Assembly (NCBI GenBank): GCA_004297805.1
Contig: SCTJ01000052.1
Location: 1 to 48,375 of the forward strand
DNA length: 48,375 nucleotides
DNA from: Patescibacteria group bacterium
GTDB taxonomy: Bacteria > Patescibacteriota > Minisyncoccia > Moranbacterales > SCTJ01
Direction: 5' to 3'
In this document: one piece after another, positions 39,928 to 48,373 of the stretch
How the letters are laid out: each line of letters opens with the position of its first letter
How positions within the stretch are numbered: position 1 is the first letter of the stretch
The notes under the pieces: generated by a model
Told to the model about the DNA's origin: nothing
The model's input: only the letters and a program-made list of their open reading frames with translations
Databases searched by the model: none
Translations under genes and position numbers: made by a program

Positions 39928-40971
39928 CTAATGTCCAAGCAACAAATCGTTGGTGAATTTATCGCTCAAGACAGGTGCTTGTTTGGTTTTAATGATTGGA
40001 TAGGTGTAACTAAATGCTTCTTCTGCAGTTACCTGACTATCGACTTGGGATAGTAAGTTAATACTATCGGCTTGCATATTAGTCATTCCGCTAACTACAA
40101 AGTAGTGACTGAAAAGTCCTTCGCTGTAAGTATATCCGGAAGTCGAGGTTCCTCCGCCTCCTAAAGTATATGTCCACGAGCTTTGATTCTCTACGCTGGA
40201 CATGGCAATAACACGATTTACTCCGGCAATATCATTCATGCCGCCTGCCAGACACATATCAAAAACAAAAGCCTCTCGATATACAGACAAGCTATCAGCC
40301 CATGCCTTCAAGTCATCATCCCAAATAAACTGACCATCATAAGTATAAATAGCCTCGTCTACTTTTTCACCATCCACTATTCCGTAATAATTTCCTGAAA
40401 CACCGTGTCCGCTGTAAAAGAAAACCACTTCATCATCGCCATCCAATTTTGACTGCAAACTGTTCATTGCATCTACAATACTGGCTTTGGTAGCATCGCT
40501 ATCACGAAGAATGGTGATATTGGCAGGATTATATCCATATTGGTTAACCAGAGCATCTTTCATATGGATGCTGTCATAGTCCTGGCAATAATATCTTGGG
40601 TCAGTAGTTGGAAACACTGACACATCAGCCTCATCGGTTTCGGCTACTAACGGACAAAGGTCATTCGCTGTGCCGTTATAGTTGGCTAGCCCAACTACTA
40701 TTGCATACCTTTCCCCTGTGGTTGGAATCGGTTCGCCCACTATCCCCGTAGCCAGTGGCTGGAACACTCTACTTCTGGCTCCACTTCCCATTTTGCCTTT
40801 GGCTAGTTCATCCAGAGATTTCCGCTCCTCGTCAGAAATCAATTGTTTTTTATGAACTTTAATGTCCGTGGACTTGGCATTGTTTTTTTCTTCCTGCTGG
40901 GCATTAACGTTTATTCCCAACAAGATGAAAAATAAAAATAATGTTACTGACACTGCTATGATTTTTTTCAT
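39928..40971 (-). CDS. Secreted clan CD (caspase/legumain-like) cysteine peptidase
   Basis: Signal peptide. YAIVVGLANY, His-Gly dyad FFYSGHG and catalytic Cys context AFVFDMCLAGG, in caspase-fold order. Confidence 0.65.
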   Translation of the reverse strand: MKKIIAVSVTLFLFFILLGINVNAQQEEKNNAKSTDIKVHKKQLISDEERKSLDELAKGKMGSGARSRVFQPLATGIVGEPIPTTGERYAIVVGLANYNGTANDLCPLVAETDEADVSVFPTTDPRYYCQDYDSIHMKDALVNQYGYNPANITILRDSDATKASIVDAMNSLQSKLDGDDEVVFFYSGHGVSGNYYGIVDGEKVDEAIYTYDGQFIWDDDLKAWADSLSVYREAFVFDMCLAGGMNDIAGVNRVIAMSSVENQSSWTYTLGGGGTSTSGYTYSEGLFSHYFVVSGMTNMQADSINLLSQVDSQVTAEEAFSYTYPIIKTKQAPVLSDKFTNDLLLGH

Positions 40972-41211: not shown

Positions 41212-42072
41212 TTACCAAACGGCTATGCCAGCCAGGCCCATCACTATCAAGCCGACGGAGATATATTGTTGAACGGAAAGTCTTTCTTTGTAGGCAAGGT
41301 TTGCATAAATCATCGCCACCAATGGATTGGCCATATAGAGCATAATCACAATGCTAACCGCCGTTGATTTGATTCCATAATTATAGGCTAGCGTCGCGAT
41401 AAAACTGAAGATTGCCATTGAGATTATATATTTTCCAAAACCACCTGGCAGGGCGAATGTTTCTTTCGCCTGCCACATCTGCACGGCACACATGAGCAAC
41501 ATGACAACTTCAACAATGAAGGATGTCATAATCGGTCCGACCAGCGAAACGGGGAATTTAAACAGGAAGAAAGTTACCCCCCACCCGATGCACGCAGCCA
41601 AGGCAAATGGCACGCCACTGGTCAACTTGGTAAGCTGAGAATTTTTCAGATCTCTGAAATTGAGCGAAATCAAAATAACACCAGCGACGACCGATAGCCC
41701 ACTCGTCCATTGCCAGGCGTTTAATCTCTCTCCGAGAAAAATGACGGCTAGCAAAGTCGTGATCAGCGCCGAAGAATTGGCAATAGGTGTGATTACTCCG
41801 ACTTTGCCATAATGCATCCCCTTATAGAAAAGCATCATTGGGAAATAGGCGAAGATTGCCACGGCCACAGCTACTAATATTCCTCGCAGCGTAACACCCT
41901 CGGGAAAAACAAAAACAAGCAAAATAAACAGTAACGAGGTAGCTCCCACGCCACGATAAAACATGGTCTTCAGCGCGCCTATTTTTTGGGCCGGAACTCG
42001 GGACAAGGCACTGTTCATGCCAAATCCAATCATCGCCAACAAACCAAAAATAACCCCCTGTGAAATTTCCAT
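41212..42072 (-). CDS. EamA/DMT family transporter
   Basis: 286 aa, 10 TM in two EamA-like halves. Confidence 0.8.
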   Translation of the reverse strand: MEISQGVIFGLLAMIGFGMNSALSRVPAQKIGALKTMFYRGVGATSLLFILLVFVFPEGVTLRGILVAVAVAIFAYFPMMLFYKGMHYGKVGVITPIANSSALITTLLAVIFLGERLNAWQWTSGLSVVAGVILISLNFRDLKNSQLTKLTSGVPFALAACIGWGVTFFLFKFPVSLVGPIMTSFIVEVVMLLMCAVQMWQAKETFALPGGFGKYIISMAIFSFIATLAYNYGIKSTAVSIVIMLYMANPLVAMIYANLAYKERLSVQQYISVGLIVMGLAGIAVW

Positions 42073-42711
42073 TTAGTCGTTACGAATATTGTTTAATTTC
42101 TTCCTAGCAATAATCCTGATCCAGTGGGTGTCTTTTCTGCCCCCATCATCCTTGCGTAAACTCGAATATAACACCTCATAGCCCTCATTCTTCAGTATTT
42201 TTTCGAGCTCACCTTCTGAAAAATAGACAAACCATCTTTTCTCTTCGGAAAGTTTATCTTTTTTGTAGGAGGTTCCCTTACCCTTTTTGACCTGAATGAA
42301 AATAACACCTCCCGGCCTCAAAACTTTGTGAATATTTCTGAGAACGTTTGGGATATCCTTTTTTGAAATATGCAACAATACCGCCGAAGCCCAAACCCCA
42401 TCGAAAGAGTTAACAGGAAGCTTCAGCTGAAGCAAATCCATCTTTTTGAACCTCGCTTCTGGAACATTCTTTCTAGCTTGTCTCAAAAAGGTATCGACCA
42501 AATCAATACCTGTAACTCTGAATCCTTTTCCGGCAAACCTTTTGCTGTCTCTGCCACCCGCGCAACCAATATCCAATACCGACCCCTTCCTTGGCAGCAA
42601 TTTAGCAAAATCCAAAAATTCGCTAGGCATTAGACCCTCAATTACCTTTAGATAGGCGCTTCCCATCCTTGAATACGCTTTGATTGTATTGGCATGTTTG
42701 TCGCCTTCCAT
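42073..42711 (-). CDS. Class I SAM-dependent methyltransferase
   Basis: Motif I VLDIGCAGGRDS, motif post-I GIDL, and SFDGVWASAVLLH. Its stop abuts the EamA start. Confidence 0.85.
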   Translation of the reverse strand: MEGDKHANTIKAYSRMGSAYLKVIEGLMPSEFLDFAKLLPRKGSVLDIGCAGGRDSKRFAGKGFRVTGIDLVDTFLRQARKNVPEARFKKMDLLQLKLPVNSFDGVWASAVLLHISKKDIPNVLRNIHKVLRPGGVIFIQVKKGKGTSYKKDKLSEEKRWFVYFSEGELEKILKNEGYEVLYSSLRKDDGGRKDTHWIRIIARKKLNNIRND

Positions 42712-42714
42712 ACT

Positions 42715-42820
42715 CCCATCATATCAAAAAACCCCTGCCGGAGCGAGGGTGGAAGAATTACGTAATTTTTATCCACCTCAGGTGGAAATTACGTAATTGT
42801 TTACGTAGATATGAACGTAG
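42715..42820. repeat. Promoter-module repeat, copy b
   Basis: CCCATCATATCAAAAAACCCCTGCCGGAGCGAGGGTGGaAGAaTTACGTAATT...TTTACGTAGATATGAACGTAG. It matches 43492-43566 with 2 mismatches plus a 31-nt internal duplication. The minus strand reads TGATATGAT at 42718-42726. Confidence 0.9.
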
Positions 42821-42858
42821 CAAGATGCTTCATAAAAAGTTTCGACAAATCGTATTTT

Positions 42859-43458
42859 TTATTTATTCAAAATCAATTTATTCCAATTTGGTCTTGGCAA
42901 AACAGCTTTTGACCCTGCCTTGCACATCGGACAATCAGACTCAGGATATAGATTTCCTTTTTCAGCTATTGCCGATACAATCTCTAAGTCTAATAATGTT
43001 TTGGCTCCAGAGAAATTACCAATTGTGAATATCGGCGATTGAACTTTTGCACCTAATCCATCCAGGATTTTAATCGTTTTTTTGATGCTCCCGCCAGAAT
43101 AGATATCATCACCTACTACAGTAACCACGTCCCCCTTTCTGATATCGAAATCACATGTTTCGGTTTTTGTATCCGCATATCCAAATTTAGCACCAATCTG
43201 TCTTGCCAGCGCATATGCGATAGCTAGACCAAATGGCGGATATGAAATTACCCAATCTGGTTGTATATTTCTCAACCCAAGTTCCTTGGAAAAAATGTTC
43301 TTTACTATATTCTCAATCAAAGGAACATCTGAAACCACATAATCAGTATTCAAATATAAATCTGAATGCATCCCACTTTCTGATGTCTGAACATGGAACT
43401 TGGAATGATCGTACTTCCATATCGCCTTATCATTTATCATTTCAGGAATGGTTTTCAT
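42859..43458 (-). CDS. Phosphoribosyltransferase family protein
   Basis: PRPP-binding loop VVTVVGDDIYSGGSIKKT. 199 aa with a C-terminal CPMC. Confidence 0.75.
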   Translation of the reverse strand: MKTIPEMINDKAIWKYDHSKFHVQTSESGMHSDLYLNTDYVVSDVPLIENIVKNIFSKELGLRNIQPDWVISYPPFGLAIAYALARQIGAKFGYADTKTETCDFDIRKGDVVTVVGDDIYSGGSIKKTIKILDGLGAKVQSPIFTIGNFSGAKTLLDLEIVSAIAEKGNLYPESDCPMCKAGSKAVLPRPNWNKLILNK

Positions 43459-43491
43459 AAATTGTTAGGTTAAACATTACGCCGTCATAAG

Positions 43492-43576
43492 CCCATCATA
43501 TCAAAAAACCCCTGCCGGAGCGAGGGTGGGAGAGTTACGTAATTATTTACGTAGATATGAACGTAGTCCGGAACGT
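43492..43576. repeat. Promoter-module repeat, copy c, with 12-nt phased ACGT cores
   Basis: Same sequence as copy b. ACGT cores lie at 43537, 43549, 43561 and 43573. The minus strand reads TGATATGAT at 43495-43503. Confidence 0.9.
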
Positions 43577-43640
43577 ACCTAAAAATCGCAGGGCGATGTT
43601 AGCTCTTGGGGCAATAAAGTCCAGTCTAATTACCCACTGG

Positions 43641-43668
43641 TTGCCCACTCTTGCTTTTGTGCTATAAT
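43641..43668 (+). promoter_or_regulatory. Sigma-70-like promoter of the PD-(D/E)xK gene
   Basis: TTGCCC, a 16-nt spacer ending in TGC, then TATAAT. The extended -10 reads TGCTATAAT at 43660-43668. Confidence 0.6.
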
Positions 43669-43690
43669 TTCAATAGAAGTAAAAATACAA

Positions 43691-44380
43691 ATGTATATGA
43701 CTGAAAAAACCTTTGTAAACAAATTGGAGAGCATTTTGGTTAAAGAAGGTTACTTCTCAAAGAGAGAAATTGGTGTGGGATACGGCATAGCCGATTTAGT
43801 TATAGTGAAGCAAAATTCTTTCAATATAGACAATTGTAAAAAAAGGAGGGGCTACGGTCAATTTTCCAAACTACTAAGTGAGGAATATTTTAAGGTACTT
43901 GAACAATTGCCCGATTTTGAAAAAAAAGTGAGCAAGGTTGATTTAAATTTTTTGATTGAGAAAACCAGCTTATCAAAAAATTATCTCAAATACACTATCC
44001 TAAAAGACCTGCAAAAAAAACGCTTCATAAAAGTGACCAGCGAAGGAACTTATTTTAAGGTTAACGGATGGGTGCCAATCGTTAAGGAGGTAATTGCGAT
44101 TGAGGCAAAACTGAAAGACTGGAAAAGAGGATTTATTCAAGCGAATCGGTATAAAGCGTTTGCGGATAAGGCTTATTTGGCAATCCCTAAAGAAGCGGAG
44201 CATCTGGTTAATAAGGAATTGCTTAAAAAACACGGTATTGGCCTCATAGTGCTTGATACAGCATCAAACATGAAAAAAATTACTTTACCCGCAAAAAAAG
44301 AAAAGCCTCTCAACTTGTGTAAGAGGAATTTCGCGATAGAACACTTTTGGTGCAATAAATACTTAAAACAAGTTGCCTGA
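43691..44380 (+). CDS. PD-(D/E)xK nuclease-fold protein with inserted wHTH-like segment
   Basis: GIADLVIV (D) and VIAIEAKLKDW (ExK) followed by QANRY. The roughly 100-aa insert looks like a winged helix. Confidence 0.55.
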   Translation: MYMTEKTFVNKLESILVKEGYFSKREIGVGYGIADLVIVKQNSFNIDNCKKRRGYGQFSKLLSEEYFKVLEQLPDFEKKVSKVDLNFLIEKTSLSKNYLKYTILKDLQKKRFIKVTSEGTYFKVNGWVPIVKEVIAIEAKLKDWKRGFIQANRYKAFADKAYLAIPKEAEHLVNKELLKKHGIGLIVLDTASNMKKITLPAKKEKPLNLCKRNFAIEHFWCNKYLKQVA

Positions 44381-44827
44381 GCTTATCTTGGAGAAGCTAT
44401 CCAAAAACTTAGACGGTTCGACAACCCTAATATCTTCAAACTTCTTCACTTCCAGAACAGCCTTGTCGCCTGTTATGATTATTTTCGCCCCGCATGATTT
44501 GGCTATCTTAAAATAACAATCGTCGTCGGGGTCTTTTTTTACCACGTTCACATTTTCAAGAATCCCTTTCGTATCCATGATATTAACAATCGCTTTGTAA
44601 TCCAAAATTATTTTTTCTGGCGTAAATATCTGTTTTTTCCAATATTTTGAAAATTTTGGCATCATGACTTTTTCACAAAACTCATCGTAAGTTTCCTTGC
44701 TACCATACATAACAACCTTCTTCGCCAGTGCCAAGTTTAATATTTGCCTCGTTCTTGATTGGGAATGACTCAGCATTCCAGATAGCAATAAGTTTGCGTC
44801 AGGTACAATTTTTATCATCGTCTTCAT
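44363..44827 (-). CDS. PIN domain nuclease (PIN_3 / TIGR00305-like toxin family)
   Basis: IVPDANLLLSGML, YDEF, KKDPDDDCYFKIAKSCGAKIIITGDKAVL give the acidic quartet pattern. Its ATG overlaps the upstream stop as ATGA. Confidence 0.8.
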   Translation of the reverse strand: MKTMIKIVPDANLLLSGMLSHSQSRTRQILNLALAKKVVMYGSKETYDEFCEKVMMPKFSKYWKKQIFTPEKIILDYKAIVNIMDTKGILENVNVVKKDPDDDCYFKIAKSCGAKIIITGDKAVLEVKKFEDIRVVEPSKFLDSFSKISSGNLF

Positions 44828-45999
44828 TTTTCTAAATCTTGAAGTAGCTTGTCCAATTCATCGTCATCCTTTTCATAGCTCCAATTTTTCGCCAATTGCA
44901 ATACGTTCAACCAACGTTTGAGATGAATGGTTTTCAGGTCAATTGCGAATTTCCTATTGTAAGTCTCAGCCAGTTTAATAGCCTTCGTAAGTTTTTCTTC
45001 CATCAGTGCTATTTTTTGCGGTCTATCAAGTTTACTGAGCGCATCCATAATTTCCATTTTACGGTGAACGAAATGCTGTTTTTTAGCTTGCTCACCTACT
45101 GGAAACGAACCCTGACAGGCAGCACAACTACACTTATAACCTATCTTTTTTACTATTTCATCATTAACCTTGTCGAAAACCTCTGGGATATACGTTTTTT
45201 TAACCTTGTTTGACCATCCCTGAGGGCTTTTCTCTAAATTTTTAACTACCAACGACTCTCCATCGCCTAATCCGCTAGAAAAACCAGTCAACCCTATTGA
45301 ACTAATAATCTCTCCGAAGGGCCCAATTCGCTGAATGATGACGTTTTTTCCTTCGGAAAGCTGAAACGACATGTATGCCAGCCCGCCCAGCGTATCTTCT
45401 GTAGCATTCTTGCAGTCCAGTTCATCAAATGATATGAAGTATCCTCCTATCTTGTCAGAAAAATCATCCCTGTAGCGGTCTACAATATAATTAACTATGC
45501 TTGGCCTGCACAAAACGTTATTCCCAATCTGTATTTTCACAAAGATAGGCTTATCAATACCTTTTTCTTCAACATATCTTATTGTTTCAGCAATCATGGA
45601 AATATTAATTCCGAATTTAATATCATCCGTATCCATTGCGAAGAAATACGGAGCTATTATGATATCAGCTCCCATCTTAACCTGATTGTCCACTGCTGGA
45701 ATGATTACGTTTTCTCTTCTGAAACTAGAATCACTGTATATTTTTTCAGGTTGAACATCAGCCGGATATGATAGCTTCTTGAAATTTTCCTTTCCCTTCG
45801 CCTCATTAAACAGCATGCAGTGCGTTGACGGGTCAACAATAAATACGCCTGCTGACTCTTTGACTTTTTTTGCAGCCTTCGGCCTCCATATAACATGAGA
45901 GGCATCCATCAAAACTGCTGGAAAAGAAAAACCAGCCTCAAAAATTTTTTGGTCTTGAAGTTTAGGAATAAATATTGGTTCTTTCTCAAATATAGCCAT
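44824..45999 (-). CDS. Hypothetical enzyme with TGT/DpdA-like CxCxxC...H zinc motif
   Basis: 391 aa from the ATG at 45997-45999. CSCAAC is encoded at 45115-45132, followed by HFVH 14-17 residues later. The motif sits in the C-terminal quarter, as in tRNA-guanine transglycosylase superfamily proteins. Alternating strand/helix pattern upstream. Confidence 0.4.
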   Translation of the reverse strand: MAIFEKEPIFIPKLQDQKIFEAGFSFPAVLMDASHVIWRPKAAKKVKESAGVFIVDPSTHCMLFNEAKGKENFKKLSYPADVQPEKIYSDSSFRRENVIIPAVDNQVKMGADIIIAPYFFAMDTDDIKFGINISMIAETIRYVEEKGIDKPIFVKIQIGNNVLCRPSIVNYIVDRYRDDFSDKIGGYFISFDELDCKNATEDTLGGLAYMSFQLSEGKNVIIQRIGPFGEIISSIGLTGFSSGLGDGESLVVKNLEKSPQGWSNKVKKTYIPEVFDKVNDEIVKKIGYKCSCAACQGSFPVGEQAKKQHFVHRKMEIMDALSKLDRPQKIALMEEKLTKAIKLAETYNRKFAIDLKTIHLKRWLNVLQLAKNWSYEKDDDELDKLLQDLEK

Positions 46000-46106
46000 T
46001 TTTTTATTTGGGTTTCTATTATATGGGAAAAAATAAGTCAACAAGTATATTGAGTCTATCACTAATGATAGTTGCTGTAAATGGAGCGGAGCGGAGTAAA
46101 CCACGC

Positions 46107-46560
46107 AAAAAACGCCCTTGTGAGGCGTCCCTGCGTATGCTCAAGCAAAAGTAATAAGTATCACAACCTATTGCGATTCCCCAATCCCTTGCGAGATTAG
46201 GGCCGTTAGCCCTCGCTAACGGAGTCCTTAAGAGTCTATCCGTACCCTTGTACAAAAGGTACTAGCAGTATTCGCACTGCTGGACTAGCTGTTGCCTACC
46301 GAAGTAGGTTCGACCAGCGGATAACTACCAATGCTCTCCATTATGCCCTATGAGGGGCGTAACTTCTACTAGAGTGCATTTCTCGGTAGCTATCAATTTC
46401 TCCCTAGAAAGGAGGTGATTCGTGGGAAGAATCAGAGAAATGCTTTTGTAAAAGTCCGAGTAGTGTCATTTTACTCCCTAGAAATACTGCAAAGGTGGGA
46501 GTTATAGACAAAATAAAGAGGCAGATTGCTCCACCTCTAGTTAGAACCGTGTCCCTTAGA
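46107..46560 (-). ncRNA. Candidate structured RNA of unknown class (about 450 nt)
   Basis: ORF-poor and GC-richer than the flanks. The minus-strand orientation gives CCTAC-UUCG-GUAGG, a 10-bp stem capped by GCAA, and CCGTTAGC-gagg-GCTAACGG. It also gives a 9-bp long-range pair GCATTTCTC/GAGAAATGC and a terminal hairpin plus T6 (46107-46128). Confidence 0.45.
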
Positions 46561-47806: not shown

Positions 47807-48373
47807 CTATCCGAAATAATTTTCCACCGCAAATTCAAACTGTTTCAAAAACAGCTCCTTAAAATACGAGATATTGTTTTGCTCGTAAAACAACAGCATC
47901 GCCTTTTTGTATTCGCCTTCGTCCATACTGCGGTAAGAAAGAGGGCAGGAATCAAAAGATTGCAAAATGGCATTACCACCCAATCGACTGGTTCTTTTAT
48001 TGCCATCTACGAATGGTTGAATATAAGCAATGAGTAGCATTAAAATAATAGATTTTTCAAAAACATCATTAGTTTCGTTTACCAGTTTGCAAGTTTTTTC
48101 TAAGGCTTCTTTTATTTGAAACTCATTGTCCAATGGCTTGTAGTTTGTGCCAGTTATTCCAACAAGCGTTTTTCTCAAGTTTTTTGTCACGTTCAAACCA
48201 TCCACCAGCAAGGAATGGATATTTTCTATCTTGGCAACGGATATAGATTGAAATTCATTTTTATTGCTACCAATATATTCCAATGTTTTCTTATGGTTGA
48301 GAATCATAGTCGCCTCTTCCTTGGTATGCCCTGATGCTTCTTGTTGGTTTTTAATCAATTGCTCTGTCTCCAA
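47807..48373 (-). CDS. Fic/Doc family protein, 5-prime partial at window edge, non-canonical motif
   Basis: The motif IQPFVDGNKRTSR (47984-48019) corresponds to HxFx(D/E)GN(G/K)R with Gln in place of the catalytic His. The ORF runs off the window. Confidence 0.65.
   Translation of the reverse strand: METEQLIKNQQEASGHTKEEATMILNHKKTLEYIGSNKNEFQSISVAKIENIHSLLVDGLNVTKNLRKTLVGITGTNYKPLDNEFQIKEALEKTCKLVNETNDVFEKSIILMLLIAYIQPFVDGNKRTSRLGGNAILQSFDSCPLSYRSMDEGEYKKAMLLFYEQNNISYFKELFLKQFEFAVENYFG

Follow-up and report, generated by a model that had tools for sequence, protein, structure and literature searches.

A three-gene cassette, mostly from Patescibacteria, links a predicted divergent member of the tRNA-guanine transglycosylase superfamily to a PIN nuclease and a putative Mrr-like endonuclease: a candidate conflict module

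The 48,375-nucleotide contig SCTJ01000052.1 (assembly GCA_004297805.1), which belongs to a Patescibacteria metagenome-assembled genome and was analysed here over its whole length (hereafter the window), carries a self-contained, horizontally mobile cassette of three genes, designated A, B and C, with a length of 2.3 kb. Gene A, whose product is annotated as 'hypothetical protein EPO05_03225', encodes a predicted divergent member of the tRNA-guanine transglycosylase (TGT) superfamily, gene B a PIN_3-type nuclease and gene C a putative Mrr-like endonuclease. Our preferred interpretation, to which we assign a probability of roughly 0.55, is that the cassette is a conflict module (defence or addiction) in which the TGT-derived protein A would flip a base, as a reader, non-canonical glycosylase or modifier, and would in this way gate the output of the Mrr-like nuclease and of a PIN nuclease or a kinase. 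The genes and their junctions are as follows.

44824 to 45999, minus strand: gene A, 391 aa, from the ATG at 45999 to the TGA at 44826-44824 (ORF and translation)
44363 to 44827, minus strand: gene B (PIN_3), 154 aa
43691 to 44380, plus strand: gene C, 229 aa, convergent with gene B
44824 to 44827, minus strand: ATGA stop/start overlap from gene A to gene B, read from the sequence
44363 to 44380, both strands: convergent 3' overlap of genes B and C, 18 bp (ORF coordinates)

A first-pass annotation of the window had proposed genes A and B as a new two-gene pair, and its gene coordinates, the C-S-C-A-A-C motif at 45115-45132, the spacing of that motif to H-F-V-H and the ATGA at 44824-44827 were all confirmed from the open reading frames (ORFs) and their translations. 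Gene A can alternatively be read from a GTG start, giving 426 aa; its homologues begin at the ATG. Homologues of gene C begin with 'MTEK', so that the true start of the window gene C may be 43697.

Hidden Markov model (HMM) searches of all fetched loci found A, PIN and C together, in the same arrangement, at 25 of the 25 loci long enough to judge, of which 18 were non-redundant (31–84% pairwise identity), and the association of A with PIN extends beyond this genome. The two loci lacking one member both break off at a contig edge, and at the three loci reached via C homologues alone, A and PIN were also present. Throughout these loci the A homologue is followed by a PIN_3 gene, and a gene C of ~228 aa lies convergent to the PIN gene, usually overlapping its 3' end; the convergent layout of B and C, with an overlap of 0–37 bp, was seen again in other loci. 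The junction between A and PIN is a 4-nt overlap at 7 distinct loci (the ATGA type also being present in L001, L004, L009, L010, L016 and L017), a 2-nt gap at two and a 38-nt gap at one. The identity matrices of A, B and C were correlated (Mantel r 0.84, 0.84 and 0.70; p<=5e-4), and the three genes co-evolve. Beyond A, B and C, no conserved flanking ORF was found among the 18 core loci or 12 loci of a kinase clade described below; an ORF of 229 aa that precedes A in L009 was considered and is not a C homologue.

In a sister clade (L036-L038 and L043-L055, metagenome), a Hanks-type Ser/Thr kinase (PF00069, E ~1e-50) is fused to the N-terminus of A, giving proteins of 665–715 aa (~23 aligned representatives), and both the HRDLKPxN and DFG kinase motifs are present in the fusion sequence inspected. 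The fusion gene is followed by a co-directional, abutting C homologue (C-HMM E 1e-16 to 1e-34) at 12 of the 12 metagenome loci long enough, and the same arrangement occurs in L036-38, with no PIN gene in any of these loci. Since the sister clade keeps C and trades PIN for a kinase, A and C form the invariant core of the cassette, and PIN and kinase alternate at a single exchangeable position. The two-gene pair proposed earlier therefore stands in part: the association of a TGT-like protein with a PIN nuclease is real and, in the sources searched, undescribed, but the pair was incomplete, as the third gene had been missed and C, not PIN, is the invariant partner of A. A more remote A-like protein, P0119 (434 aa; L039 1682-4250), is encoded in an operon whose other products are a PIN from another family (PF01850), a C core of 132 aa that lacks the winged helix (C-HMM E 3e-21) and an ASCH protein. 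Archaeal ArcTGT carries a PUA domain, which the PUA-like ASCH protein beside this A-like gene recalls.

The 18 core loci are flanked by genes for tyrosine integrases (6), large serine recombinases (5), S subunits of type I restriction-modification (R-M) systems (4), DNA methylases and a BanI-type enzyme. In the window, the G+C content of the cassette region is ~0.38 (42000-46000) against 0.45–0.51 in the rest of the 48 kb, which fits recent horizontal acquisition. Hosts are mostly Patescibacteria (Microgenomatus, Paceibacterota), with single records from Ignavibacteriales, Omnitrophota and Paludibacteraceae, and the distribution is patchy. A pattern scan of IMG/VR returned no A homologue and hence gave no evidence of a phage-borne cassette.

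Direct searches with protein A gave no usable match in Pfam, NCBIfam, PHROGs, PADLOC or PDB sequences, and the weak DUF4857, MTHFR and primase matches returned by direct searches with A and C were taken as noise. An exhaustive profile search collected 602 cluster representatives at E<=1e-3 (69 at E<=1e-30), and the conservation figures given for protein A refer to an alignment of 137 full-length homologues in three clades. The AlphaFold2 model of the window protein (built on 14 homologues; predicted local distance difference test, pLDDT, 82.9; predicted TM-score, pTM, 0.82) comprises a barrel and a helical bundle, on which the motifs discussed below are placed.

Residues ~9 to 280 of protein A: (beta/alpha)8 barrel, AlphaFold2 model
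Residues 303 to 390 of protein A: C-terminal helical bundle bearing conserved Trp residues, AlphaFold2 model
45823 to 45834, minus strand: 'DPxT' motif D56-P57-S58-T59, at the C-terminal end of beta-3
45073 to 45132, minus strand: predicted zinc site, C290-x-C292-x-x-C295 (45115-45132) and H309 (45073-45075)

The short hydrophobic strings that had been quoted as barrel strands from the translation are indeed beta strands of the beta/alpha barrel in this model. Foldseek comparison with the PDB placed bacterial TGT in all of the top six positions (E 9e-7 to 7e-6; query TM-score, TMq, 0.45–0.52; ~400 columns), with generic TIM barrels ranked behind them (E>=2e-4, TMq 0.3–0.38). The PDB entries 3unt, 4q8m and 2nso (Tgt, PF01702) are presumably Z. 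mobilis enzymes. The DpdA structure 7ui4 was included in the Foldseek library, yet fell outside the top 50 fold matches of protein A. A fold search of BFVD with protein A returned uncharacterised phage proteins only, and E. coli Tgt, used as a query for phage DpdA sequences, retrieved bacterial-type Tgt only.

Profile comparison of the A family was made against six bacterial Tgt sequences. The hhalign match to this six-sequence profile had an E-value of 4.5e-6 and a probability of 87% in local mode over 180 columns (306 at low stringency), the probability in global mode being 44%; reversed and column-shuffled controls gave P>=0.33, and significance was reached only with the six-sequence profile, E. 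coli Tgt alone giving E 0.02–0.2. The Pfam TGT model (PF01702) did not match the window protein A; of 60 distant relatives, one reached a sub-threshold E-value of 2e-4. At 11–13% identity, the profile alignment is collinear and pairs 'PIFIPK' of A with 'TPCFMPVGT' of Tgt, 'IVD56PST' with 'ILTD89SGG', and 'Q106...GADIII' with 'Q...GSDIVM'. Protein A and bacterial Tgt share an N-terminal 'P-x-F-x-P' strand, the beta-3 Asp, a 'Q...G-x-D' helix-strand unit and the CxCxxC...H site; protein A differs in lacking a Pfam match, in the replacement of two Asp, in a shorter zinc loop and in its Trp-bearing C-terminal bundle, and is found in mobile islands with nucleases, whereas Tgt has housekeeping neighbours of the queA/yajC type.

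The predicted zinc ligands are strongly conserved among the 137 homologues (C290 95%, C292 83%, C295 93%, H309 98%). H-F-V-H corresponds to residues 309–312 of protein A, 14–17 residues past C295, and because H312 is not conserved, H309 is the likely fourth ligand. The columns of the zinc site coincide with 'CDCYTC...H' of E. coli Tgt, the loop of A being ~12 residues shorter. The first-pass assignment to the TGT superfamily is accordingly upheld with respect to both fold and zinc site, given the Foldseek ranking, the hhalign E-value of 4.5e-6 and a motif conserved at 83–98%; the possibilities it had left open, an incidental Cys motif or an unrelated fold, are at odds with ligands conserved across the homologues and with TGT as the best structural match. 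By profile comparison and modelled fold, protein A belongs to the TGT superfamily as a divergent member, and its Cys motif is not incidental.

TGT and DpdA have three invariant active-site Asp residues, serving as general acid/base, in base recognition and as nucleophile (D95, D130 and D256 in DpdA), and exchange is abolished by mutation of the acid/base Asp or the nucleophile Asp (PMC10164549). In the alignment, D56 of protein A falls on the general acid/base Asp (D89 in E. coli, D102 in Z. mobilis, D95 in DpdA), and the DPxT motif containing it is conserved in all three clades (D 88%, P 97%, T 88%; position 56 is Asn in 8%). The base-recognition Asp (D156 in Z. mobilis, D130 in DpdA) is aligned to Y118 of 'A-P-Y-F', within an invariant 'A-P-[YF]' motif; across all clades, 78% of homologues have Tyr and 12% have Phe at this position. 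The Asp that serves as nucleophile, located where beta-8 ends (D280 in Z. mobilis, D256 in DpdA), is aligned to S241/S242 of 'G-F-S-S-G-L' (Ser/Gly); no acidic residue is conserved at positions 241–243 in any of the three clades, the closest being E/D248 (79%). One of the three catalytic Asp, D56, thus appears to be kept, as judged by remote profile alignment and strand order, and protein A is predicted not to be a canonical Tgt/DpdA exchange enzyme. The DpdA-like base-exchange function suggested at first is not supported by this comparison, which placed only D56 at a catalytic Asp, with Y118 and S241/S242 at the other two positions.

Active sites of TIM barrels sit at the C-terminal ends of the strands. 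Pocket positions conserved in the three clades of A comprise DPxT, Q106, P117-[YF]118, [ST]242-G243, E/D248, Y/F270 and W363, of which DPxT, Q106, P117-[YF]118, [ST]G, E/D248 and Y270 occupy such strand ends in the model. Since this polar pocket is strongly conserved over all three clades, protein A is unlikely to be a mere scaffold.

Gene B matches Pfam PIN_3 (PF13470; 46.1 bits against a cut-off of 27, E 9.8e-12) and TIGR00305 (56.6 bits against a cut-off of 29.15, E 2.8e-15). All 18 distinct PIN proteins of the module share D10, N12, R27, E49, D99, D102 and D121 without exception, and the acidic active site, formed by D10, E49, D99, D102 and D121, is intact; the product is therefore predicted to be an active nuclease, and the translational coupling of gene A to a PIN_3-type nuclease, as originally described, holds with the active site complete.

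Protein C had no Pfam match above threshold and no PDB-sequence match, and its homologue search yielded at least 249 clusters. Its AlphaFold2 model has a pLDDT of 93.4, and residues E26, D35 ('G-x-A-D-L-V'), E138-A-K140 ('I-E-A-K'), Q150, R153 and Y154 are invariant in 64 homologues; of these, E26, D35, E138-x-K140 and Q150 are the putative catalytic residues. The pattern resembles the signature of a classical PD-(D/E)xK nuclease, broken by an insert.

43870 to 44065 of the window: winged-helix insert of gene C, residues ~60 to 125, helix-helix-helix-strand-strand

Foldseek returned only weak matches for protein C, to XisH/BsaWI-type nuclease folds and to many winged helices. Sub-threshold Pfam matches among the 64 members were to Mrr_cat (14/64, best E 7.8e-4), HTH_46 (23/64), Rrf2 (18/64) and TrmB (16/64), the winged helix-turn-helix families as a whole being matched in 10–23 of the 64, and no member exceeded the Pfam threshold. 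Together, the motif pattern and the model suggest that protein C is a putative Mrr-like PD-(D/E)xK endonuclease into which a winged helix has been inserted. It resembles Mrr-type (type IV) nucleases in its putative D...ExK core, the sub-threshold Mrr_cat matches and the winged helix; it differs from them in that the winged helix lies inside the nuclease domain rather than N-terminal to it, in the lack of a strong PDB neighbour and in its constant pairing with a TGT-like protein in the A-B-C module. Among the top structural matches of the insert are the Z-alpha domains of ZBP1/DLM-1, with a TMt reaching 0.83 across ~60 residues, a likeness that may be just generic winged-helix similarity.

In the mechanism that we favour, protein A would bind nucleic acid and flip a base into its barrel pocket; its role would probably be that of a reader, or of a non-canonical glycosylase or modifier, and not the exchange of guanine or 7-deazaguanine. 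It would control or direct both nucleases, C acting on DNA and PIN on RNA or DNA, with invading or non-self nucleic acid as the target of both, and B would be a swappable effector or output module. A more specific version, tentative and in our view possible rather than probable, is that the cassette represents a new immune family, in which a TGT-derived protein without guanine exchange would read or excise a base, possibly phage-modified (e.g. 7-deazaguanine), in invading DNA or RNA and would license the Mrr-like nuclease and the swappable PIN or kinase. If this were true, the fold of a queuosine enzyme, in origin a writer, would now serve immunity as a sensor or glycosylase.

Several points weigh against the interpretation as a conflict module. 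The defence role is drawn from genomic context and domain logic alone, and A, B and C had no match in PADLOC-DB 2.0 at E<=1. Catalytic residues were assigned by strand topology and remote profile alignment (probability 87% local, 44% global), not by superposition, and the conserved polar pocket is equally compatible with A being a genuine enzyme that acts on a new substrate, a protein included (as with Cap10, below). Mechanisms may differ between the kinase clade and the PIN clade, and another remote A-like member (L041) lacks C and lies beside a GIY-YIG-type nuclease gene.

It is rather unlikely, in our estimation, that the cassette is a base-exchange R-M system, with A as a DpdA-like writer of a modified base in host DNA, C as the nuclease cutting unmarked DNA and PIN as an accessory. 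Such a system would agree with the TGT fold, zinc subdomain and general acid/base Asp of A, with the invariable pairing of A and C, like that of M and R genes, with the resemblance of C to Mrr-type restriction nucleases and with the frequent location of the cassette among R-M genes, and Dpd likewise has a TGT-superfamily protein in a conflict context adjoining nuclease genes. However, the nucleophile and base-recognition Asp, invariant in TGT and DpdA (PMC10164549), are Ser/Gly and Tyr/Phe in all clades, the three Asp of DpdA being reduced to one in A, and there was no PADLOC match to Dpd. None of the Dpd partners, namely DpdB (ParB-like ATPase), DpdC (DUF328), preQ0 genes and helicase-type restriction genes, flanks the 18 non-redundant loci, and no DpdB, DpdC, preQ0-synthesis or other conserved neighbour appeared when the 12 kinase-clade loci were included. 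The position of 7ui4 outside the top 50 fold matches also speaks against a DpdA-like writer, and a fused protein kinase is hard to reconcile with a methylase-like role. A tRNA-targeting toxin, which we regard as unlikely, would have A as a QTRT2-like, non-exchanging subunit that presents the anticodon or D-loop to the PIN RNase, shutting off translation on infection, with C as a separate DNA arm or regulator. QTRT2 is a non-catalytic TGT paralogue, and the loss of two catalytic Asp from A is as in such paralogues; VapC-type PINs are known tRNases. The nearest structural relative of A is a tRNA enzyme and not DpdA, and A keeps the zinc subdomain, by which nucleic-acid binding is stabilised in TGTs (10.1101/2025.04.06.647259). 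The translational coupling of A and PIN, the recurrence of two different PIN families with A-like genes and the ASCH (PUA-like, RNA-binding) gene of the remote operon are in keeping with the same idea. Yet A and C persist without PIN, so that PIN is not an essential output, a passive adaptor would not need a strongly conserved polar pocket, and no tRNA gene or tRNA-like RNA was found in or beside the cassette.

We consider it very unlikely that the cassette is a plain type II toxin-antitoxin (TA) system with a PIN toxin, A as an unusually large antitoxin and C as an unrelated neighbour, even though PIN_3/TIGR00305 proteins are annotated as TA toxins, gene B meets these family models with its acidic site kept, and the upstream partner overlaps by ATGA in the style of TA operons. 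Instead of a small antitoxin, that partner is a conserved barrel protein of 391 aa that has an enzyme-like pocket and no detectable DNA-binding antitoxin domain; the third, nuclease gene is obligatory, being present in 25/25 loci and co-evolving with A and B; and A and C remain together where PIN is absent. Least probable of all, and highly improbable in our judgement, is that A controls the activity of a partner protein, be it PIN, C or the fused kinase, by binding or transferring a nucleobase-type adduct on it. The precedent is Cap10, a TGT-family protein that holds a deazaguanylated N-terminus of a CD-NTase (10.1101/2025.04.06.647259) and that resembles A as a TGT-family barrel in an immune operon, re-tooled away from tRNA modification; protein-level control is also suggested by the A-kinase fusion and the A-PIN coupling. 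In Cap10, from type IV cyclic oligonucleotide-based antiphage signalling systems (CBASS), the three Asp equivalents are kept and the zinc site, normally an aid to the binding of nucleic acid, is lost (10.1101/2025.04.06.647259). Protein A is the mirror image, keeping the zinc site and losing two Asp, and there is no CD-NTase, QueC-like Cap9 or Cap11 among the neighbours and no PADLOC match to Cap10.

Further features within and around the cassette were identified in the window.

43641 to 43668, plus strand: promoter-like site upstream of gene C, TTGCCC-16-TGnTATAAT, 10/12 matches, consensus scan only
44306 to 44326, minus strand: terminator-like hairpin and T-run 3' of gene B, inside gene C on the opposite strand, consensus scan only
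42862 to 43458, minus strand: phosphoribosyltransferase (PRTase) gene, orotate phosphoribosyltransferase-like (62 bits against an NCBIfam cut-off of 150), product ending in C-P-M-C
46095 to 46560, minus strand: candidate unclassified structured RNA, with a hairpin and T6 terminator at ~46100-46131
39931 to 40971, minus strand: caspase-like Peptidase_C14 gene (5.5e-13)
47810 to 48373, minus strand: Fic/DOC-family gene (PF02661, 1.9e-13), continuing past the window end

Given the promoter-like site on its 5' side, gene C is probably transcribed separately, from this putative promoter. The PRTase gene, previously read as only a loose hint of nucleobase traffic, and the neighbouring methyltransferase gene were not retained as members of the system, as neither is a conserved neighbour of the cassette at any other locus. 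Upstream of gene A lies a 560-bp gap that is richer in G+C and contains many perfect hairpins. It folds with a minimum free energy of -162.8 kcal/mol against -129.6 +/- 6.2 kcal/mol for shuffled sequences (z = -5.35), and searches of it for Rfam families (E<=1), tRNA and tmRNA gave no match; a non-coding RNA component of the cassette was rejected, the upstream structure not being conserved in other loci and having no Rfam or tRNA match. The Fic/DOC and Peptidase_C14 genes flank the cassette region, and both types are common in conflict islands. In the Ignavibacteriales locus (L004 2108-4800), a Bil-type ubiquitin-like conjugation operon (BilD_N/ThiF, JAB, BilB-like) adjoins the cassette.

No description of the cassette was found in Pfam, NCBIfam, PHROGs or PADLOC, or in the literature searched, the coverage of which was incomplete, so that absence is unproven; source annotations of the cassette proteins read only 'hypothetical' or 'serine/threonine-protein kinase'. 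The nearest literature concerns DpdA, Cap10 and a BREX-related system with a canonical TGT. Proteins of the TGT fold are already known in immunity in two guises, one that writes on DNA (DpdA) and one that holds a nucleobase-protein adduct (Cap10), and the cassette would be a third re-use of this fold, in which the zinc and nucleic-acid-binding part is kept, the exchange chemistry is dropped and the protein is tied to two nucleases or a kinase. As A and C have no Pfam family, they define two new protein families, and the compact cassette, with clear mutational targets, would be easy to test. Its concentration in Patescibacteria places it in hosts whose defence repertoire is poorly known.

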